Assembly (NCBI GenBank): GCA_945861145.1
Contig: CAMATL010000001.1
Span: forward strand, 21,003-85,002
Direction of reading: 5' to 3'
DNA length: 64,000 nucleotides
Source: a candidate division TM6 bacterium GW2011_GWF2_37_49
GTDB lineage: Bacteria > Babelota > Babeliae > Babelales > RVW-14
Shown one piece after another: positions 4,225 through 64,000 of this stretch (position 1 is its first letter; every line of letters begins with the position of its first letter). Both the position numbers and the translations under genes were made by a program. The notes under the pieces are model-generated. The model was not told the origin of the DNA. It saw only the letters and a list, made by a program, of their open reading frames with translations, and searched no databases.

Positions 4225-4836
4225 ATGATTGAATCACTGACAGGTGTTATTTTACGAACATTTAGCACGGGAAGATTGTGTATTTTTACACGATCAATGG
4301 GCAAAATTTTTTGTTCAGCAAAAAAATCAGCTCACCAATCTCAATTTATTGTTGGTAGCCGATTAACCATCAATCTTGTGCAAAAATACCCAGACACCTT
4401 TACCATTGAATACATAGACAATATTGTCTATCCAAATATTCAAACCACCCAAGAGCTTTCATGGCTACACCATGTACTTGAGTTATACTATTTTTACCTT
4501 CCTGAACATCAGGTAAGTGTACGCGATTTTGATTTTCTCATTCATTACCTAGCCTTAATAAAACGCAATCACGAGTCAATCGGTAATATCAATTTACAAA
4601 ATCTAGCCATCAGTCACTTTTTGGCACAAACTGGATTTCATGAACAACCAGCCCTTCATCGTTATGCAAAAATTTTTGAAGAATTCATTGACCCCACTGT
4701 GTCATCCGGGGTACCATTTTCCCTGATTGGCATTGAAGAAGTATCAATGCAAGAATTAATTCTCCGCTGCTTACAAGAACACCCGCAGTTTAATAAATTT
4801 AAAACCATCCCGTTCTTGTACGGTGCACATACCTAG
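4225..4836 (+). CDS. Hypothetical protein, weak RecO-like pattern
   Basis: 203 aa. The N-terminus (GVILRTFSTGRLCIFTRSMGKIFCSAKK) resembles the OB-fold start of RecO, followed by a helical region. Similarity was judged by eye only. Confidence 0.3.
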   Translation: MIESLTGVILRTFSTGRLCIFTRSMGKIFCSAKKSAHQSQFIVGSRLTINLVQKYPDTFTIEYIDNIVYPNIQTTQELSWLHHVLELYYFYLPEHQVSVRDFDFLIHYLALIKRNHESIGNINLQNLAISHFLAQTGFHEQPALHRYAKIFEEFIDPTVSSGVPFSLIGIEEVSMQELILRCLQEHPQFNKFKTIPFLYGAHT

Positions 4837-12758: not shown

Positions 12759-12904
12759 ACGTCATCCCCAGCTTGATCTTGGATCAAGGCTAATAATCCA
12801 TCAAAATTTATCGAAAACGCTAATCTATGAAGCACTTTGGCAATTTCAATCATATGATTTTTTATATTGAGCCTGGATCCTGGCTCGGAGGCCAGGACGA
12901 CGTA
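12759..12904. repeat. MITE-like element with imperfect terminal inverted repeats (GTCATCCC-type ends)
   Basis: The left arm cacgtcatccccagcttgatcttggatcaaggc (12759..12790) and the right arm gcctggatcctggctcggaggccaggacgacgt (12871..12903) are imperfect reverse complements. The element lies in the spacer between paralogues 2 and 3. Confidence 0.5.
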
Positions 12905-17171: not shown

Positions 17172-17574
17172 TGGTGGAGGCGATGGGAATTGAACCCATG
17201 TCCGCAACGCCCTCAACGTCAAGTACTCCATGCTCAGTCTTCGAATATACCTCTTACACACCTCGAAGACACAGATCGTGTAAAAGGGCCTTTCGTGTAT
17301 GACTACGCTACCCTAGACTAAGCTTACGTAGAAACCCTACCTTTGTTTGTTCAAGCACACCCAGACGGTAAAGGTACCAAGTGTACTTGCGGTAACTGCT
17401 TAATTAAGCAGCAGCGTAAACGTGAGAAGGAGCATTGCTACCTCTCATGAAATCGCTAAAACCGGAGTTTGTTAGATTTGCATCTATTATTCGCACAGTT
17501 TTTTAACGCGGGACCATACAAACCGCGACATGCACTCAACGCAAAAAACACCACGTCGAAACCGTGACGCCCCC
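17172..17574 (-). ncRNA. ssrA: tmRNA (transfer-messenger RNA)
   Basis: On the minus strand the 5' end reads GGGGGCGTCACGGTTTCGAC. The 3' end reads GGGTTCAATTCCCATCGCCTCCACCA (T-arm plus acceptor plus CCA). The acceptor stem pairs with a G3:U wobble. An internal tag frame ends ...GSNAPSHVYAAA-TAA (stop at 17404..17406). Confidence 0.85.
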
Positions 17575-17626: not shown

Positions 17627-17887
17627 AAAGCAAAAAAATCTTGCAAACAATGCCGGCTCACGTATCCTGGTGACCTAAAATAAACGCAAGTTCGGCAAAT
17701 TAAGATCGTGAGAGAAGCCCTTCTGAGAATGTCTTCTACAAGAGCTGGGAATTCTAGTTCTGTCGTGCTCGCTAAGGCGAGGATGCAGGCTATATGATTC
17801 CAAATTCTCATTGAAAATCTCTCGCAATCGCAATACCAGCATAATAATTCGATTTTTCATATTTAAAATTGAATTATTATTATTTGG

Positions 17888-17914
17888 CTGGATGCCCGCC
17901 TTCGCGGGGACGAC
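17888..17914. repeat. Solo GC-rich hairpin unit of the GTC(A/G)TCCC repeat type
   Basis: ctggatgcccgccttcgcggggacgac contains the hairpin cccgc-cttc-gcggg in an otherwise AT-rich spacer. It explains the repeat-type peptides in the shadow ORFs (VVPAKAGIQ / WMPAFAGTT). Confidence 0.4.
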
Positions 17915-39472: not shown

Positions 39473-39479
39473 TCATGAT

Positions 39480-39560
39480 GGTTCGATACAATTCTCGCGC
39501 AGCGAAAATCACTCACCATGACCCTTCGATACAATTCTCACTGGGTGAAAATCACTCAGG
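39480..39560. repeat. Two tandem units of the TTCGATACAATTC...AATCACTCA repeat family
   Basis: The units are ggttcgatacaattctcgcgcagcgaaaatcactcacc (39480..39517) and ccttcgatacaattctcactgggtgaaaatcactcagg (39523..39560). Both are related to the arms of the element at 20116..20322. They fill the mlaE-mlaF spacer. Confidence 0.6.
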
Positions 39561-39614: not shown

Positions 39615-40361
39615 ATGATAGAAATTATAGGCTTAAAAAAATCATTCGGGTCCAAAGCAGTCACTAAGGATCTGTCGCTCCAAGTTAACACGGGCGAATT
39701 TTTAGCCATTATTGGGCGTTCGGGTGAGGGCAAATCGGTACTGCTAAAACAGATTGTCGGCCTGATTAATTCTGATGGTGGCGACATTATTATTAATGGC
39801 TCGCATCTTTCAGCCCTGCACGGCAAAGACCGTCAAAAAATATTCAAAGAATGCGGTTACGTTTTTCAATTTGCCGCACTGCTTGATTCTATCTCGGTAT
39901 TTGAAAACATCGCCCTCTACCATTTAGAAAACGGCATCAGCGCCAAAGAGATGCGTCCGCTTGTAGTCGAGAAAGTTAAAAGTGTTGGTTTAAGCCTCGA
40001 TGTGCTTGATAAATTTCCTGATGAACTTTCTGGTGGCATGAAAAAACGCGTTGGCCTAGCACGTACGCTCATGATGACCCCCAAAATTTTGATCTATGAT
40101 GAACCAACCACAGGGCTCGATCCTATCACGACGCGGTTGATTCATGAGCTGATGAAAGACACGCACATTAAATTTAACACCACAACTATTGTCATCTCGC
40201 ATGATATCGAGATCTTCAAATATGCCTCACACGTGGCGATGCTTCACGAAGGCAAAATCATATTCAAAGGCGAAGCATCAACTATCTGGGAAAGCACTGA
40301 CCCATACATTTATCAATTTATTCGCGGTTTAGCTGAGGGCCCAATCCAACATGGCACCTAA
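39615..40361 (+). CDS. mlaF: MlaF-like ABC transporter ATP-binding protein
   Basis: Walker A GRSGEGKS, signature LSGGMKKRVGLARTL, Walker B ILIYDEPTTGLD. Confidence 0.8.
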   Translation: MIEIIGLKKSFGSKAVTKDLSLQVNTGEFLAIIGRSGEGKSVLLKQIVGLINSDGGDIIINGSHLSALHGKDRQKIFKECGYVFQFAALLDSISVFENIALYHLENGISAKEMRPLVVEKVKSVGLSLDVLDKFPDELSGGMKKRVGLARTLMMTPKILIYDEPTTGLDPITTRLIHELMKDTHIKFNTTTIVISHDIEIFKYASHVAMLHEGKIIFKGEASTIWESTDPYIYQFIRGLAEGPIQHGT

Positions 40362-41790
40362 CATCACACCTACTTCAAAACCGATAATCTTAGTCGTAGA
40401 CGATGAGCAAGCTATTCTCACCGCAATGGCAAATATTTTGCAAGATGATGGCCATGTCGTGGAAACCACCACCAAGCCTGAGCTTGTTTTAGATTTGATC
40501 GGCACCTTGGTACCAGACCTGGTTTTTTTGGATATCTTTATCCCCAATGCTAACGGGATTGACCTACTCGCTTTAATTAAAAAAGAATATCCGAATCAAA
40601 AAGTTATAATCATGTCCGGTTATGGCAACGTGTCGCTCGCTGTTGATGCACTCAAAAAAGGGGCTCTCGATTTTGTTGAAAAACCATTCTCAATCGACGA
40701 CATTTTAAATAAAATTTCCCAATACTGCCCAACACATGACAATCAATACCAATTATCAGCCACAGCCCCACAGCATGCCGATCTAGTTGGTGAAAGCTAT
40801 TTATTTAAAGAGCTAGTTAATTACATCGACCGGATTGTCCCCCTCGATAATCATGTACTCATGTATGGGCCGCGCGGCATTGGCAAAACACATCTCGCTC
40901 GCTACATGCATGCACAAAAACATGATGGCAAAATTTTTCCAAATCAGGATGGATCCCGGGGCCCCCTGTCCTTCGGACTGGCACGGGATGACAGGGGAGG
41001 ATTGCATTCTGAATTTTGTCATCCCGGGCCCGATGAAGCCATAGGCGTAATCAGGGGGCCCCGCGATCCAGAGCTAAATCAAAGCAAGCTTACCGAAATA
41101 AGTGGCTTGCAAAATCCAACCCTAGCTATCGACCAATCACTCTTCAATCAAGAGGGTTCGATTATTATTAAACAGGTTGAGTCACTGACCAGCGCAGCAC
41201 AAAAAAAATTGCTCGCGCTACTTGAAGCGCCAACAACCAAGGCACGTGTATTTTGCCTGACACACAAAAATCTTTTTGGGCTCACAACCCAAGGACACTT
41301 CAACGAAGATTTATTCTACAGCCTCAATTCAACACCAATAGAGATCCCATCATTAAATAAACGCCGCTTTGATATCCCATTACTCGTGCATCATTACCTG
41401 ACAGCAATCAATAAAGAGTCAGGATCGTCATACACATTGTCCACAGAGGCTATTCGATTTTTACGCAACCATACCTGGCACGAGCACTGCCGCGAACTAC
41501 AACAACTACTTATTGCTGTAACCGTCGATATAAAATCCTCTGACCAAATTATTACACCAACTCATCTTCAACCATTTTTACATGAAGCCGACCATCACCT
41601 TATTGAAGAGCAACGCTTCCGCGGCTTTTCTTCATTACATGAAGCCACTCTTTCGTTTCAAAAAAAATTTTTACTGTACCAGCTGAAAAAAAATCGCTAC
41701 GATCTTGAACAGGTCTCGGACGTCCTAAGCATGGGTGTCGTAGATTTGCGCAATGAATTACAGCGGTTAAATATTTTACTAAGCTTGTAA
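40351..41790 (+). CDS. Response regulator with a REC domain, a degenerate NtrC-type AAA+ domain and a Fis-type HTH
   Basis: The REC domain reads ILVVDDEQ...DLVFLDIFIPNANGIDLL...IIMSGYG...KPF. The AAA+ domain has LVGES...MYGPRGIGKTHLARYMH but no GAFTGA loop. The C-terminal HTH reads YDLEQVSDVLSMGVVDLRNELQRL. It carries an in-frame repeat insertion. Confidence 0.65.
   Translation: MAPNITPTSKPIILVVDDEQAILTAMANILQDDGHVVETTTKPELVLDLIGTLVPDLVFLDIFIPNANGIDLLALIKKEYPNQKVIIMSGYGNVSLAVDALKKGALDFVEKPFSIDDILNKISQYCPTHDNQYQLSATAPQHADLVGESYLFKELVNYIDRIVPLDNHVLMYGPRGIGKTHLARYMHAQKHDGKIFPNQDGSRGPLSFGLARDDRGGLHSEFCHPGPDEAIGVIRGPRDPELNQSKLTEISGLQNPTLAIDQSLFNQEGSIIIKQVESLTSAAQKKLLALLEAPTTKARVFCLTHKNLFGLTTQGHFNEDLFYSLNSTPIEIPSLNKRRFDIPLLVHHYLTAINKESGSSYTLSTEAIRFLRNHTWHEHCRELQQLLIAVTVDIKSSDQIITPTHLQPFLHEADHHLIEEQRFRGFSSLHEATLSFQKKFLLYQLKKNRYDLEQVSDVLSMGVVDLRNELQRLNILLSL
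40952..41069. repeat. GC-rich palindromic element inserted in frame in the response-regulator gene
   Basis: gatcccggggcc...cgggatgacagg (40953..40994) faces ttgtcatcccgggcc...ggggccccgcgatcc (41017..41069). The terminal motifs match the element at 53411..53552. It is translated as DGSRGPLSFGLARDDRGGLHSEFCHPGPDEAIGVIRGPRDP. Confidence 0.65.
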
Positions 41791-49538: not shown

Positions 49539-52256
49539 ATGATAAATAAATTGTGGTTATGGATTACAGGACCGCTCCTATCCTACCGCTCGAGACCCTT
49601 CGAGACAGCCCTATCGGGCTTCCTCAGGGCGAGCGGAGTCAGCAAGTTAATTCAATCTGCTTTGATGGGCCTTGCCAGTATTGAGAATTGTCATTCTAAA
49701 TTCAGAGCTCTCTTCTTAACCGCTCGCCCTGATATTTTTTCGACCGGCTCAGCAGCAAAAAAACCCGCTCGCCTTGAGCTTGTCGAAAGGTCTCGAGCGG
49801 ATTTCAAAGGGTTTCGAGCGGCCAAAACTCTTAAAATAGCCTTTTTATCTTTATTTATTGCCACCACCTCCCTGCACGCAGAAGAGCCAAACGTCAGCGT
49901 CATGTTTAATCCTGCCACAGGCTCCATACAAGCGATCAATGCGGATGAAAGCTCCCCAATAACTACCCAAGAGCAAGCGCTTGCCCTAGCCCAAGAGCCA
50001 ATGATAGACATTGCGCCACCGCTATCAGGTGCATCTAATAAAAAACCCGCAGCGCCATCTACCACTAAGGCCGCCACTACTACTCCCTCTAAAGGAATCG
50101 ATGATGGCGAAGCAAATGTGTACCTTAATTTTGAAAACGTAAGCCTTAACAGTGTTGTTAACTATTTGGCTGAACGTAAAAAAATTAACCTTGTCCCGCA
50201 CAAAGATTTAGAGGCTCAAAAAGTATCGCTCAGCACACGCAAGCCACTCACACTAAATCGCGCTTGGGATATCCTACTCACCCTTCTCGAGATGAATGGT
50301 TTTAGCATCGTGCAAGTCAACAATTTGCATCGCATCGTTGCAAATAAAGATAATGGCGTTGAGCCATTGCCGTACTACACCTCTCAGATAACAGCACCCG
50401 AAGATTTGCCAGACAGTGATCTAGTAGTGCGCTACATGTATTTTTTCAAAAATATAAAACCTGAAATCGCTCAAGATATTTTAAAAACAATGCTCGATGG
50501 TGATAAGAGCGTGCAGCCAATTAAAGACCTGCAAGCTGTTATTATTAAAGAAAAGTGTCACAACATCAAGGCTGCCTTACGGGTTATTAAAGAGCTTGAT
50601 ACTGGTGGCCTACGTCAATCCATCCGCATAGTCCCGCTCAAAGAAGCTGATGCTGAAACCGTACAAAAGCTTTTTCAAGACATTTTGGGTGGCGGCGAAG
50701 GCGGCGATGATCGTTTAAAATTTATAGCGGCTGATAGCCCTGCAGAATCGGCCTATTTTTCTTCAACAACAAAAATTATTCCCGATTCAAGTAAAAACTC
50801 ATTAATTCTTTTGGGTACACCAGCCAACATCGATAAGATTTGTAATTTTATTTATAAATATATCGATGTACCAATTGGTACCGCCAATTCACGTATTCAT
50901 ATTAGAGAGCTGCGCTACGCTAAAGCAGAAGCATTAAAGCCACTACTTGAAAGTATTATCAAACCACCAAGTGGCCAAGGTAGTGATAAGAGTAGTATTG
51001 TCGGGCAATTCAAATTTTTTGAAGATGTAATTATTGCGGCAGACGCCGCTGGTGGCGATGAAAATAGAGGCGCAGGCAACCGACTGATTATTTCAGCCAA
51101 TCAAGGCGACTGGGTACGCTTAAATAGCTTTATTGATAAACTCGACAAACCAGCACCGCAGGTCGCTTTTGAAGTAATGATAGTAGATATTACCCTACGC
51201 ATGGATAAAGAACTTGGCGCTCAACTACAAAGCCAAGGCATGGTCGGCGCTGGGCTTAACCGCGTGAATTTTAATAATATCTTTGCGCTTCCAAGCGGCA
51301 CAGAAGGGAAAGAAACCTATACACCAGACAACCCTACCATCCCTGCTTATAAATTCACTGATATCATAAATAAAATAGGATCTGGTTCGTTTTTAACACT
51401 TGGCGCTCCAGGGGTGGGCGAGGCCAATAAAATGTGGGCTTTTATCCGCAGTTATTTTAATACAAATAATAGCCATATTGTTTCTCAGCCTTACTTAATT
51501 ACTAATAATTTTCAAGAATGCCATATTGCGGTTGGAAGTACGGAGCGCGTTCCTGGCCCATTAATCACTGAAAAAGGTGAGGCTAAAACACAACAAAAAG
51601 TAGAGAGATCGGCCAATACTGACGTTAAATTAACACCACAAATTAACTATGATGGTGTCGTTACACTTAAAATTGATATGTCGATAAATGAATTTGTACC
51701 CGGCTCCCCAGAGAGCGGCTCAAATATGGCCAAGCGAACCATAGCAACAAAAGTAAACATGGCTGCTGGCGAGGTGCTAGTGCTTGGTGGTATGGCAAAA
51801 AGCAATCTCAATTTAAGCACTTATAAAACCCCAATCCTTGGCGATATACCAATCCTTGGCAACCTCTTTCGCAGTACAGTCAAAATAAAGGATGAAGTAA
51901 ATCTGTATGTCTTTATTCGCCCAAGCGTCATCAAGCCAAGCTTTGAAGGCGCGCCAGATGAATACACACAACTCAAGCTCGATTATGCAAAATATCAAAT
52001 GATCAAGACCGACAATTATTCTAGAGAGTATGACCCTGTGCATCGCTGGTTCTTCAAGCCAACAAACCATTCAATCAAAAACACACTCGCCGATGCGCGT
52101 AATGGGGTATTTAGACCTGTGGATGACTTCACGTATGGTAAAGGCCAGCCGAAGACTGTGGATATAAAATCCGATCCATACTACCAAGCCACAGTCAATG
52201 TTGAAGCTGCTAAGAAATTGAAGAAGTTAAAATCGCGCAAGAAAAAACAGGCGTAG
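49539..52256 (+). CDS. Secretin (GspD/PilQ family) 2, with a repeat-derived N-terminal extension
   Basis: N0 region VYLNFENVSLNSVVNYLAERKKINLV and secretin core GEVLVLGGMAKSNLNLSTYKTPILGDIPILGNLFRS. The signal-like h-region KTLKIAFLSLFIATTSLHA begins only at about residue 97. Confidence 0.8.
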   Translation: MINKLWLWITGPLLSYRSRPFETALSGFLRASGVSKLIQSALMGLASIENCHSKFRALFLTARPDIFSTGSAAKKPARLELVERSRADFKGFRAAKTLKIAFLSLFIATTSLHAEEPNVSVMFNPATGSIQAINADESSPITTQEQALALAQEPMIDIAPPLSGASNKKPAAPSTTKAATTTPSKGIDDGEANVYLNFENVSLNSVVNYLAERKKINLVPHKDLEAQKVSLSTRKPLTLNRAWDILLTLLEMNGFSIVQVNNLHRIVANKDNGVEPLPYYTSQITAPEDLPDSDLVVRYMYFFKNIKPEIAQDILKTMLDGDKSVQPIKDLQAVIIKEKCHNIKAALRVIKELDTGGLRQSIRIVPLKEADAETVQKLFQDILGGGEGGDDRLKFIAADSPAESAYFSSTTKIIPDSSKNSLILLGTPANIDKICNFIYKYIDVPIGTANSRIHIRELRYAKAEALKPLLESIIKPPSGQGSDKSSIVGQFKFFEDVIIAADAAGGDENRGAGNRLIISANQGDWVRLNSFIDKLDKPAPQVAFEVMIVDITLRMDKELGAQLQSQGMVGAGLNRVNFNNIFALPSGTEGKETYTPDNPTIPAYKFTDIINKIGSGSFLTLGAPGVGEANKMWAFIRSYFNTNNSHIVSQPYLITNNFQECHIAVGSTERVPGPLITEKGEAKTQQKVERSANTDVKLTPQINYDGVVTLKIDMSINEFVPGSPESGSNMAKRTIATKVNMAAGEVLVLGGMAKSNLNLSTYKTPILGDIPILGNLFRSTVKIKDEVNLYVFIRPSVIKPSFEGAPDEYTQLKLDYAKYQMIKTDNYSREYDPVHRWFFKPTNHSIKNTLADARNGVFRPVDDFTYGKGQPKTVDIKSDPYYQATVNVEAAKKLKKLKSRKKKQA
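49571..49822. repeat. Composite GC-rich repeat (CCGCTCGAG / CCTTCGAGAC / GAGCGG family) inside the 5' end of the secretin 2 ORF
   Basis: ccgctcgagacccttcgagacagccctatcgggcttcctcagggcgagcgg matches 55831..55872. ccgctcgccttgagcttgtcgaaaggtctcgagcgg matches 56748..56785. The boundaries are approximate. Confidence 0.6.
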
Positions 52257-53307: not shown

Positions 53308-53410
53308 AATTCTCTCCATCAAAAAAGTGTTTTGTTGTGCATAAGGATAGGTTCCATTGAGTTTTTAGAATGACCTTGCCGGTACTAAGGTGCTTCGATC
53401 GCGCAATTTT

Positions 53411-53552
53411 GTCATCCCGGGTAGGGCCCCGGGATCCATTTTAAATATAAAATTCCATACTCAGAATCAGGCTAAAAAAGTATAGCGCTCTTGTTAAAAT
53501 AGAACTAAAACTCTTGCGTAGTCGCATCTCTCGGTCGATCCCGGGGCCCTAC
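53411..53552. mobile_element. 142-bp MITE-like element with perfect 26-bp terminal inverted repeats
   Basis: gtcatcccgggtagggccccgggatc (53411..53436) is the exact reverse complement of gatcccggggccctacccgggatgac (53527..53552). The core is AT-rich and has no ORF. Confidence 0.7.
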
Positions 53553-53633
53553 CCGGGATGACAGGACACTTAGTTCTAACTTTTTTGAGAAATTTTGTTA
53601 TTAATTTTTCAAAAACTCGGAAGATACCAGCTT

Positions 53634-55823: not shown

Positions 55824-56013
55824 ACTCGTACCCTTCGAGACGCACTAAAAAACTGCTCCTCAGGGCGAGCGGGGACTTTTTCTTGAGCCATCTTTCCGCT
55901 CATCCTGTCCTTCGATCCGCTCATACTGAGGAAGGCTGCAGGCCTGTCTCGAAGTACATGAGCGGGCTCAGGATGCTCGGGACGATTAAATCGTGTCTCG
56001 AAGTACATGAGCG
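55824..56013. repeat. Cluster of GC-rich palindromic repeats (CCTTCGAGAC / CATGAGCG family)
   Basis: cccttcgagacgcactaaaaaactgctcctcagggcgagcgg is present. gtctcgaagtacatgagcg occurs twice (55946..55964 and 55995..56013). ccgctcatcctgtccttcga is also present. The cluster abuts the stop of the LOG gene. Confidence 0.6.
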
Positions 56014-56015
56014 AA

Positions 56016-61171: not shown

Positions 61172-61219
61172 AAAAGAAAGCGGGCCGCTGAATTTATGTT
61201 CAGCAGCCCGCTTTCTTTT
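61172..61219. terminator. Bidirectional hairpin terminator (copy A of a duplicated terminator)
   Basis: aaaagaaagcgggccgctgaa / ttcagcagcccgctttctttt form a 21-bp stem with one mismatch (61204). The stem is shared by gltX (+) and paralogue A (-). Confidence 0.75.
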
Positions 61220-61243
61220 TAATCACAACCAAATCAAAGTAGC

Positions 61244-62335
61244 TTACGAGTGATTATCTTTGATACAACCGTCTACCGTTACATAGGCGCCACCAAGCAC
61301 CCGCACATTCACATCACCAGCCGCAGTGCCATCACCAAAAATCAGCGCCTTAGTCATGTCGGCATTAGAAGCTCCATCATAATTTTTATTAAAAATGCGC
61401 ACCTTATTTTCAAATATCACGGTGCCCTTGGTTAAGCTCAAACCGTTAGCGCCGGTATAAAAATCGCAACCATCGAGATGAAGGACTGATGTCTCATCGG
61501 CCATCGTAAATGTAATCGACCCAACATCAGTAGATTTTATTGCTTCAAGAATAGTCCCTTTTCCTATGTAGAGCGTAGAATTTTTTTCGATAATAAAATT
61601 TACAGCACTATTCGAATTTAATTTCAAGCGTCGACCAGGCATATTCAATGCCACTCGTCCGCGAATAGTAAGCGATGTAGCCGACCACCCCAACGTAGTC
61701 CAATCACTTAGCGATGATTTACCACCAGCAATTGTTATATTTTCTAAAACATGATCAACACTTTTAAAAATTCCATTATCATTCGATGAATCATATACAT
61801 TAAACAGCATATTTTTTAACGTTATAGCTGATCCAGCACCTCCCATCCCAATTATTGAGGGACAATTAAAGGTATGCCCTTGCCCATCTATAACAAGATT
61901 ATTTCCAGATGTTGCTGCAATAGATGCATTGGTTGCCATTGTTGTATCATTACCCAAAATAATTTTATTATTATTCCCTCTAATTCGACAATTAGCCCCA
62001 CTCAGTGAGCCAGAACCTCCCAACCGCAAATCAGTCATAAGATTAAGCTGGGAACTATCAGCAGAAAAGGTAATTGGCCCATTTACAACTCCATCACCAT
62101 CCCAGGTTGCTATCACACTGGCAGGAATTATAAATCCCGCTTTAAACATGGCATGGCCACGAATTTTATCGCCATTAGCAAACGTTGGCGCTGTTGCCTG
62201 GTATCCTGTGGTCGAGTTACCCCCTGGCGCCGTAGAAATTACTGATGTGGCAAATACAGAGGACGGCACCAAGAGAAGAGAGGAGAAGAGAAGAGAGGAG
62301 AAGAGAAGAGACAAATTATATTGAACTCTCATCAC
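61244..62335 (-). CDS. Secreted surface-protein paralogue A (beta-helix-like, G/N/S/T-rich), leader in frame
   Basis: The leader is M-M-RVQYNLSLLFSSLLFSSLLLVPSSVFA, then TSVISTAPGG...YQATAPTFANGDKIRGHAMFK. The C-terminal 76 aa differ from paralogue B at only two positions (HLDG/HLNG and FGDG/FGNG). Confidence 0.75.
   Translation of the reverse strand: MMRVQYNLSLLFSSLLFSSLLLVPSSVFATSVISTAPGGNSTTGYQATAPTFANGDKIRGHAMFKAGFIIPASVIATWDGDGVVNGPITFSADSSQLNLMTDLRLGGSGSLSGANCRIRGNNNKIILGNDTTMATNASIAATSGNNLVIDGQGHTFNCPSIIGMGGAGSAITLKNMLFNVYDSSNDNGIFKSVDHVLENITIAGGKSSLSDWTTLGWSATSLTIRGRVALNMPGRRLKLNSNSAVNFIIEKNSTLYIGKGTILEAIKSTDVGSITFTMADETSVLHLDGCDFYTGANGLSLTKGTVIFENKVRIFNKNYDGASNADMTKALIFGDGTAAGDVNVRVLGGAYVTVDGCIKDNHS
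62271..62311 (-). repeat. Coding pentamer tract, 8 units: T(CTCTT)2 CTCCT (CTCTT)2 CTCCT (CTCTT)2
   Basis: Read on the minus strand, the tract encodes SLLFSSLLFSSLLL of the leader peptide. It is 41 nt long and keeps the ATG and the mature protein in frame. Confidence 0.9.
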
Positions 62336-62452
62336 ACGTCCCCTTTTTTAACTAACAACACAAAAAAATCCAACTACCAAGTATGCCCGGCTTTAAAAAC
62401 TCAAAGCAATAATTTCAGGATTAGACCTCTTTCAAAGCTCAAATTTTAAACC

Positions 62453-62613
62453 CCGCCCATGTCCTTCGAGGCGCGATTACATCGATCCTCAGAGCCTGCC
62501 CTCGGCTCAATCGAGGGATGAGCGGATTGGTGAGTCGTCCATTAAAGAAAGGACATTCTTTGCCCCGCTCATCCTGAGGAAGCCTGAAAGGCTGTTTCGA
62601 AGGACATGAGCGG
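62453..62613. mobile_element. 161-bp MITE-like GC-rich element
   Basis: The termini ccgcccatgtccttcga (62453..62469) and tcgaaggacatgagcgg (62597..62613) are 16/17 inverted repeats. There is an internal sub-hairpin ccgctcatcctgagg... Confidence 0.6.
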
Positions 62614-62631
62614 CTTCAAAAGAGGTCTATT

Positions 62632-62679
62632 AAAAGAAAGCGGGCCGCTGAATTTATGTTCAGCGGCCCGCTTTCTTTT
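62632..62679 (-). terminator. Hairpin terminator (copy B, perfect 21-bp stem)
   Basis: aaaagaaagcgggccgctgaa / ttcagcggcccgctttctttt lie downstream of paralogue B. Confidence 0.75.
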
Positions 62680-62703
62680 TAATCACAACCAAATCAAAGT
62701 AGC

Positions 62704-63765
62704 TTACGAGTGATTATCTTTGATACAACCGTCTACCGTTACATAGGCGCCACCAAGCACCCGCACATTCACATCACCAGCCGCAGTGCCATTACCAAAA
62801 ATCAGCGCCTTAGTCATGTCGGCATTAGAAGCTCCATCATAATTTTTATTAAAAATGCGCACCTTATTTTCAAATATCACGGTGCCCTTGGTTAAGCTCA
62901 AACCGTTAGCGCCGGTATAAAAATCGCAACCATTGAGGTGGAGTGTTGACGTTGCATCAACTAAGGTTATACCAGCAAAATCACTCAATACAACGCCAGG
63001 ATCTATGTACAAAGTTGAATTTTTATCTACAACCAAAGTGTGAGCACCACAAAGAACCCTAGAATCTCCCCCCGGATTCAAAAATCGAACAACGCCTTTA
63101 ATCGTAACTCCATTTGTAATCTCATCAAAAAGGTGCCTGGTTCCAGCTGTCCTTAATCCAATAAAGTTAATATCTTGGAATACAAGATTAACAAAGGAAT
63201 TAAGCGGTCGCAGTGGAGTTGATGCAACAACCTTCAATGTTAAATTTTTTAATGTAAGGGAATCTAAGGGTAGGGAATTAGGATCAAGAGAACCCGCAAA
63301 AAAACTTTGTGTAACAATAGTACTACGCACTTGCCCATCAATAGTCAAATCTCCTAACGGCCCTCCAGAAGCACCTACCGCCGCAAATTTTCCCGCAGAA
63401 AGGTCTAAATCTCCTGCAAGAATTAATTTTTTGTTTGGCGCTATCAAATACATTATTTTGTTATAGTCTGGGTCGCTTGATAGTGGTGCAAATACAAATC
63501 GCGCAGTACTACTCAATCGTAAATCAGATGAAAGTACCAATGTTGAGTCCCCATTTGAAAATGTTATCGGTCCTGCCACAATACCATCACCATCCCATGT
63601 CACTACCGCAGAATTGGCAAGCGAAAGTCCATTTTTAAACATGGCATGGCCACGAATTTTATCGCCATTAGCAAACGTTGGCGCTGTTGCCTGGTATGCT
63701 GTGGTCGGGTCACCACCAGGCGCCGTTGAAATTACTGATGTGGCAAATACAGAGGACGGCACCAA
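62704..63765 (-). CDS. Surface-protein paralogue B; body ORF intact but out of frame with its ATG and leader
   Basis: The body reads VPSSVFATSVISTAPGG...YQATAPTFANGDKIRGHAMFK..., with the same C-terminus as A. The homologous ATG (63815..63813) is in another frame. Only an internal TTG (63765) opens the body frame, which then lacks a hydrophobic leader. Confidence 0.6.
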   Translation of the reverse strand: MVPSSVFATSVISTAPGGDPTTAYQATAPTFANGDKIRGHAMFKNGLSLANSAVVTWDGDGIVAGPITFSNGDSTLVLSSDLRLSSTARFVFAPLSSDPDYNKIMYLIAPNKKLILAGDLDLSAGKFAAVGASGGPLGDLTIDGQVRSTIVTQSFFAGSLDPNSLPLDSLTLKNLTLKVVASTPLRPLNSFVNLVFQDINFIGLRTAGTRHLFDEITNGVTIKGVVRFLNPGGDSRVLCGAHTLVVDKNSTLYIDPGVVLSDFAGITLVDATSTLHLNGCDFYTGANGLSLTKGTVIFENKVRIFNKNYDGASNADMTKALIFGNGTAAGDVNVRVLGGAYVTVDGCIKDNHS

Positions 63766-63794
63766 GAGAAGAGAAGAGAGGAGAAGAGAAGAGA
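63764..63794 (-). repeat. Coding pentamer tract, 6 units: T(CTCTT)2 CTCCT (CTCTT)3
   Basis: 31 nt, which is 10 nt shorter than the tract in paralogue A. From the ATG the frame reads MRAQYNLSLLFSSLLFSWCRPLYLPHQ and then stops. Confidence 0.9.
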
Positions 63795-63838
63795 CAAATT
63801 ATATTGAGCTCTCATCACACGTACCCTTTTTTAACTAA

Positions 63839-63965
63839 TACCAATCACACAAATTAACTCGGCAAATTTTTTATCAACCATTTAGTTGAGCCCATTCACG
63901 AGAACACAACGACCTGTTTGCCTAGTTTTTCAATTTTTTTAATCAGCTAATTCATGTAATTGGTA
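63839..63965. mobile_element. 127-bp AT-rich MITE with 7-bp inverted termini and a TAA (or TA) target duplication
   Basis: taccaat...attggta is flanked by taa (63836..63838) and taa (63966..63968). The homologous empty site upstream of paralogue A reads ttttttaactaacaacacaaaaaaatcc (62353..62355 = taa). Confidence 0.75.
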
Positions 63966-64000
63966 TAACAACACAAAAAAATCCAACTACCAAGCATGCC

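Follow-up and report, generated by a model that had tools for sequence, protein, structure and literature searches.

An in-frame palindromic insertion built of paired hairpin modules in an NtrX-like response regulator gene of Dependentiae

The window analyzed here is the whole stretch of 64,000 nt taken from contig CAMATL010000001.1 of a candidate division TM6 bacterium, and all coordinates given without a prefix refer to it. On its forward strand lies a response regulator gene (40351-41790) that contains a GC-rich palindrome with a core of 129 nt (40947-41075). The open reading frame (ORF) was continuous across the palindrome, and comparison with orthologous genes demonstrated that this repeat-family palindrome was inserted in frame and is lineage-specific; the insertion is recent and fixed in the species. 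The gene and the parts of the element are listed below.

40351-41790, forward strand: host gene, a response regulator of 479 residues with a receiver domain, an NtrX-like sigma54-type AAA+ domain and an AAA lid/helix-turn-helix (HTH) region
40925-41085, forward strand: segment without a counterpart in L001, the locus of the closest orthologue that lacks the insert; about 161 nt in the window stand in place of about 11 nt in L001 (DNA and protein alignments)
40941-40946, forward strand: AAATCA, read directly, possibly the left copy of a 6-bp target-site duplication
40950-40992, reverse strand: left arm, a hairpin module TGTCATCCCGTGCC-[AGTCCGAAGGACAG]-GGGGCCCCGGGATCCA with an expanded loop (structural scan)
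40993-41017, no strand: central spacer of 25 nt, the apical loop of the long hairpin
41018-41070, forward strand: right arm, a hairpin module TGTCATCCCGGGCCC-[GATGAAGCCATAGGCGTAATCAGG]-GGGCCCCGCGATCCA (structural scan)
41076-41081, forward strand: AAATCA, read directly, possibly the right copy of the same duplication

The outer ends of the palindrome core are GGATGGATCC...GGATCCAGAGCT. GC content reached 0.60 around the element, compared to 0.42 for the window. A 141-nt stretch folded into a single long hairpin with a z score of about -5 whether DNA or RNA parameters were used, and none of 200 shuffled sequences was as stable; the RNA fold of the element was -75 kcal/mol (z -5). An earlier sequence-only reading of this DNA had described a palindrome of about 118 nt at 40952-41069; the GC-rich palindrome within the gene is real, but its core proved longer at both ends. 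Only one of the six reading frames was free of stop codons across the element, namely the host gene's own (predicted translation ...KIFPNQDGSRGPLSFGLARDDRGGLHSEFCHPGPDEAIGVIRGPRDPELNQSK...), in agreement with the uninterrupted translation noted in that reading. The core and one AAATCA copy together amount to 135 nt, or 45 codons. Because the added length was a multiple of three and the sole stop-free frame was that of the host, the gene stayed intact. The promoter and terminator scan found no such site within the element. The Rfam search yielded nothing at the gathering threshold except the tmRNA, and the best match in the element was at chance level (E 0.13).

Two motifs of the element were counted across the window: GTCATCCCGGG gave 5 matches with at most one mismatch (0.19 expected), and GGCCCCGGGATCC gave 4 matches with at most two mismatches (0.31 expected). 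With one exception, the matches were confined to 40951-41069 and 53411-53562. The exception, GTCATCCGGGG at 4701, was rejected as a family copy; it was solitary, lay inside a coding sequence and was taken as a chance match.

The gene order TIM-SecG-MlaE-MlaF-RR-MoxR-GspC-GspD-PilM, in which RR is the response regulator, was kept in every related contig fetched, and the compared genes are therefore true orthologues. The insert is present in the window protein and in its relatives in L002 and L003 (99% identical), all of which are 479 residues long. The syntenic orthologue P0002 of L001 is 429 residues long and lacks the insert at 94% amino acid identity over the aligned residues; the orthologue in L045 and about 48 other Dependentiae orthologues likewise lack it. 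The insert was absent from all more distant homologues, and none of those without the repeat family conserved it at the protein level, as would be expected from the insertion proposed in the earlier reading. The net gain over L001 was 150 nt, or 50 codons. The 15 nt of this gain that remain beyond the core and one AAATCA copy lie in a loop whose length and sequence are not the same in the lineages of the window and L001. Since L001 and L045 both have the short form NT(P/F)T..., the loop form in the window is derived. Among the compared orthologues, none proved to be an empty allele with the loop form of the window, and the two AAATCA copies can therefore be read only as a possible target-site duplication.

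All seven of the seven full-length members of the 90% cluster were 479 residues long and carried the insert. In this cluster, 3 of the 45 residues inside the insert were variable, compared to 15 of the 434 residues outside (Fisher p = 0.23). The 186-nt region was identical in independent ENA and NCBI assemblies (L002, L003).

The host protein matched the Pfam families Response_reg (4e-27), Sigma54_activat (residues 145-191), Sigma54_activ_2 (residues 259-335) and AAA_lid_14, and its best PDB match was Brucella NtrX (5m7n, 5e-47). Its homologues were from Dependentiae/Babeliales, and several carried the source label NtrX. Like the host protein, NtrX-type regulators such as Brucella NtrX combine a receiver and a C-terminal HTH with a sigma54-type AAA+ domain that lacks GAFTGA. 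Reduction has gone further in the Dependentiae clade: 36-43 residues separated the Walker A helix from the Walker B strand in all Dependentiae orthologues, compared to 58 in NtrX and in canonical activators, and a segment alignment demonstrated that all of them lack GAFTGA and have K-Q/H in place of D-E in Walker B. The host protein has neither the GAFTGA loop nor the catalytic Walker B (hhhhDE) of sigma54 activators and is, judged from its sequence, NtrX-like and not a sigma54 activator. Because the degenerate AAA+ features are common to all Dependentiae orthologues, they are an old, stable trait of the clade and not decay. In the same gene block, two tandem 42-nt direct repeats (81% identity) were observed at 39474-39558 in the MlaE-MlaF intergenic spacer, which is longer in the window and L002 than in L045.

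An AlphaFold2 model of the host protein was built from 77 homologues. The mean predicted local distance difference test score (pLDDT) was 84, and the AAA+ core scored above 90 except in one stretch, residues 195-242, which was the only part of the core below 50 and lay between the helix 179-192 and the strand 246-251. The model thus placed the insert region behind the Walker A helix and ahead of strand beta2, and a disordered loop of about 45-50 residues on the surface is predicted there, with the rest of the fold intact. This prediction bears out the surface loop supposed in the sequence-only reading; the position directly behind the Walker A helix was approximately right, with the helix ending near residue 192 and the insert beginning at residue 200. 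Gly, Pro, Arg and Asp are abundant in the encoded peptide, as its source is a GC-rich palindrome. A search of the 45-residue peptide against a representative library yielded two weak chance matches and no significant relatives.

The ratio of nonsynonymous to synonymous substitution rates (dN/dS) of the host gene was 0.175 against L001 and 0.174 against L045, with 0.17 on both sides of the insert; the values for neighboring genes were 0.03-0.14. The host gene is under purifying selection. Relaxed constraint had been suspected earlier from the degenerate domain, but the ratios were well below 1, the degenerate AAA+ domain is conserved throughout the family, and the insert is fixed in seven variants. 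A pseudogene or a relaxed gene was rejected on the dN/dS of 0.17.

The unit common to the repeats is an oriented hairpin module, (T/C)GTC(A/G)T followed by a GC-rich stem, a loop, the returning stem and ATCCA, about 27-50 nt long. A structural scan found seven modules in the window where 1.44 were expected. Together with one degenerate partner, they form the tail-to-tail pair in the gene and three intergenic head-to-head pairs.

12761-12901, no strand: head-to-head pair of related modules, the left one degenerate
17762-17914, no strand: head-to-head pair of related modules, adjoining the tmRNA gene (17172-17574, reverse strand)
53411-53562, no strand: head-to-head pair of 27-nt units TGTCATCCCGGGTAGGGCCCCGGGATC, arms 100% complementary, with about 100 nt of AT-rich DNA between them (z -8.2)

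Most of the short modules were hairpins of 7-8 bp with z scores of -2.2 to -4.2, and two were weak (-1.4 and +0.5). The in-gene element and the pair at 53411 share identical stretches of 16-17 nt; AATTTTGTCATCCCGGG of the right arm is identical to 53405-53421 at 17 of 17 nt. The sequence-only reading had taken the intergenic element for a miniature inverted-repeat transposable element (MITE) with the same terminal motifs as the in-gene palindrome. Both loci do contain the motifs, but in inverted order and orientation: the GTCAT ends lie on the outside at 53411-53562 and on the inside in the gene, so that the shared unit is the module and not a MITE defined by terminal inverted repeats. The intergenic element also ends at 53562 rather than at 53552, as had been given. 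Compared with one another, the three intergenic pairs were not homologous in their inner parts. As a separate observation, the module beside the tmRNA gene that is compared below with the Neisseria NTS consensus translates as the familiar spurious peptides VVPAKAGIQ and WMPAFAGTT.

A second tail-to-tail pair was found at L001 19093-19306, upstream of a secretin gene, with outer ends GGATGGATCC...GGATCCAGAG as in the in-gene element, and a decayed copy of it occupies the same place in L045. A scan of metagenome contigs for the tail-to-tail composite returned five matches, all in contigs of 60-64% GC and none in Dependentiae; by their repeat sequences these contigs look alphaproteobacteria-like, with the taxonomy unchecked.

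The modules have the layout of hairpins treated in the 2025 description of the Ssn nuclease family. That source (PMC11893778) gives CGTCATTCCCGCGMAVGCGGGAATCYRG as the Neisseria NTS, which includes the dRS3 repeat, and the Ssn-related motif (SRM) generalizes the NTS to other taxa, following the pattern HGTCWY...RNCYNB around a 7-bp GC-rich semi-palindrome. These hairpins are described there as being bound and cut as single-stranded DNA by small GIY-YIG nucleases of the Ssn family (cd10448), whose genes are often flanked by the motif, and Rickettsia and Wolbachia are named among the SRM-rich genomes. In the window, the minus strand of 17887-17914 reads TGTCGTCCCCGCGAAGGCGGGCATCCAG and matched the NTS consensus of PMC11893778 at 24 of 28 positions. 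The strict SRM pattern, taken from the same text, matched L001 19093-19122 and an insert in another orthologue, P0031 (TGTCATCCCGGACTTGATCCGGGATCCAG). The modules were classified as NTS/SRM-like on the basis of their sequence.

The module pattern from the window was also scanned against a collection of genome contigs that excluded the source species, and the same module was found across many phyla. Most matches were versions of 27-29 nt, for example GTCATCCCGGGGCTTGGCCCCGGGATCCA, in Alphaproteobacteria, Cloacimonadota and a Muribaculaceae; the few longer ones were in GC-rich genomes and may be due to chance. Identical or near-identical modules of 27-28 nt, for example TGTCATCCCGGACTTGATCCGGGATCCA, were carried by 38 IMG/VR contigs (L053-L090; 35-69% GC, with L078 at 0.35). 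No GIY-YIG gene was found near the modules in these 38 viral contigs. The viral and proviral modules raise the question of whether the motif spreads horizontally or is constrained by a conserved enzyme.

In two alphaproteobacterial contigs, a small, Ssn-like ORF of the GIY-YIG type lay within about 400 nt of GTCATCCCGGGGCTTGGCCCCGGGATCCA.

L034 3928-4200: GIY-YIG ORF (Pfam 9e-13), with the hairpin at 4305-4332
L010 4675-4914: GIY-YIG ORF, with the hairpin at 4272-4299

The lead to the L034 ORF was a tblastn search with a YhbQ-like probe; it served as a lead only, and the ORF was then confirmed by Pfam. The position of both ORFs beside a hairpin agrees with the association of Ssn genes and motif reported in PMC11893778.

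Modules of this type were also present, in frame, in three further orthologues (P0031, P0037 and P0006), in each case after the Walker A helix and before the Walker B strand. The peptide ...SVIPDLIRDP... of P0031 is encoded by GTCATCCCGGACTTGATCCGGGATCCAG, and the peptide ...VIPGLTRDP... of P0037 by GTCATCCCGGGCTTGACCCGGGATCCAG. These two inserts lie at the same site, and a compensatory double change in the P0037 stem relative to P0031 (A...T to G...C) keeps its pairing. P0031 (L043 8587-8706) forms a filled/empty pair with P0030 (L046 10622-10684) at 97% DNA identity, the insert being a single SRM-type hairpin, and P0037 (L047 5227-5364) is their sister at 73-74% identity. The P0031 and P0037 inserts may reflect one old event followed by a loss in P0030, or two events. 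In P0006 (L042 5590-5720), a further GC-rich palindrome is nested within the loop of the module GTCATCCCCGCC...GGCGGGGACCCAG. At least three independent insertion events were counted among about 52 orthologues. Over the whole alignment, all four internal lineage-specific insertions of at least 8 residues fell at query residues 193-268, a stretch of 75 residues. This recurrence is most simply explained by a vestigial loop region that tolerates indels; targeting of the site would be the less simple alternative.

The P0006 locus had other peculiarities. The nested insert has a family-B palindrome in the loop of a GTCATCCCCGCC...GGCGGGGAC hairpin. Extra genes lie between the regulator and MoxR (L042 6473-10552), including a weak match to EndoU_bacteria and small ORFs, and a PT-HINT protein is encoded upstream.

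In-frame palindromic insertions are established for Rickettsia, where they are known as Rickettsia palindromic elements (RPEs; Ogata et al. 2000, as covered in PMC10969869). As in RPEs, a palindromic repeat of about 100-150 bp sits in frame within an unrelated, still functional gene and contributes a segment of peptide at a site compatible with the fold, in a bacterium that is obligately intracellular or host-dependent. The host here belongs to a different phylum, Dependentiae, and the likeness is one of phenomenon. RPE families have many near-identical copies and a conserved peptide, whereas here only the short modules are repeated and the composite was single-copy in the data searched; the GC-rich modules here also have the NTS/SRM layout. 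The present element combines a palindrome within a coding sequence (z about -5) and a kept frame with insert-free orthologues, selection on the host gene (dN/dS 0.17) and a predicted surface loop. As a phenomenon it is an RPE-like in-frame palindromic repeat insertion, and the parallel with RPEs drawn in the sequence-only reading holds. A literature search found no report of in-frame palindromic repeat insertions for Dependentiae.

With the NTS/dRS3/SRM family of PMC11893778, the modules share a GC-rich semi-palindrome placed between an oriented 5' (C/T)GTCAT and a 3' ATCCAG. They differ from it in that the in-gene arms are loop-expanded and fall outside the SRM pattern, and in that no Ssn gene was found in the loci of this lineage that were searched; intragenic or in-frame translated copies are not mentioned in PMC11893778, as far as its searched part goes. 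Neisseria intergenic mosaic elements (NIMEs) and the REP, BIME and REPIN doublets are similar in that inverted pairs of small hairpins flank 25-160 nt of unrelated sequence, but NIMEs and REPs are extragenic by definition. REPs begin with 5' GTAG and are associated with RAYT transposases, whereas the modules here start with GTCA or GTCG. No RAYT was identified, though no search aimed at RAYT was made.

We consider it probable, at roughly 0.8, that a tail-to-tail pair of modules of NTS/SRM layout was recently inserted in frame and is carried as a tolerated passenger in a predicted loop. Two small GC-rich hairpin modules would have been joined tail to tail to form the 129-nt palindrome, and the palindrome would have entered, recently, the codons of the loop that joins the Walker A helix to strand beta2. 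An added length divisible by three and an open host frame would have left the gene intact with about 45-50 extra residues. The insert would be a tolerated passenger and not an adaptation, and it would persist because indels are tolerated in this region, probably what is left of the lost GAFTGA/L1 insertion. The modules themselves may spread as single-stranded DNA hairpins handled by an enzyme acting in trans, for which an Ssn-type GIY-YIG nuclease would be the leading candidate. Junctions of the replacement type would fit capture mediated by repair or recombination, and they argue against simple transposition with target duplication.

Several results weigh against parts of this explanation. 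The 129-nt composite was not found a second time, whether in the window, in about 110 kb of related Dependentiae loci, in the metagenome scan or in the peptide search. When folded singly, the in-gene arms, which carry loop expansions of 14 and 24 nt, were no better than shuffled sequences (z -0.2 for the left and -0.4 for the right), and the long hairpin forms only from both arms together. The strict SRM pattern of PMC11893778 had no match in the window, because loops and stems are longer there; the in-gene arms retain only the 5' and 3' motifs, and these are all that their NTS/SRM assignment draws on. No GIY-YIG gene was detected by tblastn with the L034 and L010 ORFs as probes in the 64-kb window or in the approximately 110 kb of Dependentiae loci, and a regular-expression search for GIY-YIG gave no match. 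Neither insertion was clean: compared with L001, about 161 nt replaced about 11 nt, and in P0031 compared with P0030, about 65-67 nt replaced about 8-10 nt, which does not fit simple transposition with target duplication. A low pLDDT at the insert was expected in any case because no aligned homologue covers it.

Among the other explanations, exaptation of the insert is improbable. The loop or the mRNA hairpin would have gained a function, for instance as an interaction surface beside the type II secretion/type IV pilus genes or as a translational pause or attenuator; fixation in all population variants, purifying selection on the gene, the stable RNA fold (-75 kcal/mol, z -5) and the recurrence of inserts in the same region of four orthologues would all be compatible with this. 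The insert, however, is very young, being absent at 94% amino acid identity, and its residues are not less variable than the rest of the protein but, if anything, about twice as variable. Disorder is predicted at the insert, the four inserts are not alike in sequence, length or exact position, and the tolerance of the loop to indels explains their recurrence equally well. Slightly harder to sustain is a classical MITE of the family of the 53411 element, that is, a deletion derivative of an insertion sequence (IS) with terminal inverted repeats and a target-site duplication. Palindromic ends, a possible 6-bp AAATCA direct repeat and the motifs in common with 53411-53562 are what such an element would display, but the two loci have the motifs in inverted order and do not share termini, the three intergenic pairs lack homology in their inner parts, neither a parent IS nor a second copy was found in the searched data, no duplication was evident at L001 19093-19306 or at 53411, and target bases were replaced in both filled/empty comparisons. 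The MITE was rejected on the inverted motif order and the non-homologous inner parts.

In yeast mitochondria, bypassing of GC-rich palindromic insertions is known. It is very unlikely that the present insert is absent from the protein in the same manner, by removal or by hopping as at mitochondrial 'byp', or that the gene is a pseudogene. A very stable hairpin inside a coding region would suit bypassing, but bypassing would not need a frame that is exactly kept and is the only open one, and dN/dS was 0.17 on both sides of the insert. No take-off/landing codon pair was found, though no search aimed at one was made. An assembly artefact or a chimera can practically be dismissed; the general fact that palindromes can be misassembled stands alone in its favor, and it is countered by the identical 186-nt region in independent ENA and NCBI assemblies and by seven distinct full-length protein variants, from different contigs, that carry the insert. 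An artefact was rejected on the independent assemblies.

Selfish palindromic DNA that survives in frame within functional genes is best known from Rickettsia, and Dependentiae are an unrelated, poorly studied and host-dependent phylum; the same outcome there suggests that it follows generally from hairpin-repeat activity in genomes of this kind. Further interest comes from the NTS/SRM-like building blocks and from the repeated insertions in one regulator. A broader proposal, which we regard as speculative and rather unlikely, is that NTS/SRM hairpins are building blocks of RPE-like protein insertions in host-dependent bacteria outside Rickettsia, that they enter by a replacement-type route (templated repair or recombination) rather than by transposition with target duplication, and that they repeatedly colonize the vestigial GAFTGA/L1 region of a single conserved regulator; if true, the regulator loop would be a natural hot spot for protein remodeling. 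The two filled/empty pairs (window/L001 and P0031/P0030) provide concrete junctions for working out how the hairpins move. For annotation, the 50-residue low-complexity 'domain' of the regulator is derived from a repeat.

Other repeats were observed elsewhere in the window. A second family of GC-rich palindromic repeats, for example CCGCTCATCCTGAGGAAGCC...TTCGAAGGACATGAGCGG, was clustered at 49580-49830, 55895-56015 and 62455-62615. The first cluster lies inside the 5' part of the secretin ORF (49539-52256). The window lacks the ATG that starts the signal peptide MIKRCLF... in L001 and L045, and in-frame starts are present only upstream; the second-family repeats may, going by these start codons, be translated as an N-terminal extension of the secretin. 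At the site of these repeats, L001 and L045 have a tail-to-tail pair of GTCATCC-type modules instead. At 61172-64000, a tandem duplication of about 1.46-1.49 kb was found, with 92-99% identity over the longest matching blocks and less elsewhere. It covers two paralogous ORFs on the reverse strand (61244-62335 and 62704-63765) without a Pfam match; a purine tract (GAGAAGAGAAGAGAGG) comes after each of them, together with a strong palindrome resembling a terminator (AAAGAAAGCGGGCCGCTGAA...TTCAGCGGCCCGCTTTCTTT).

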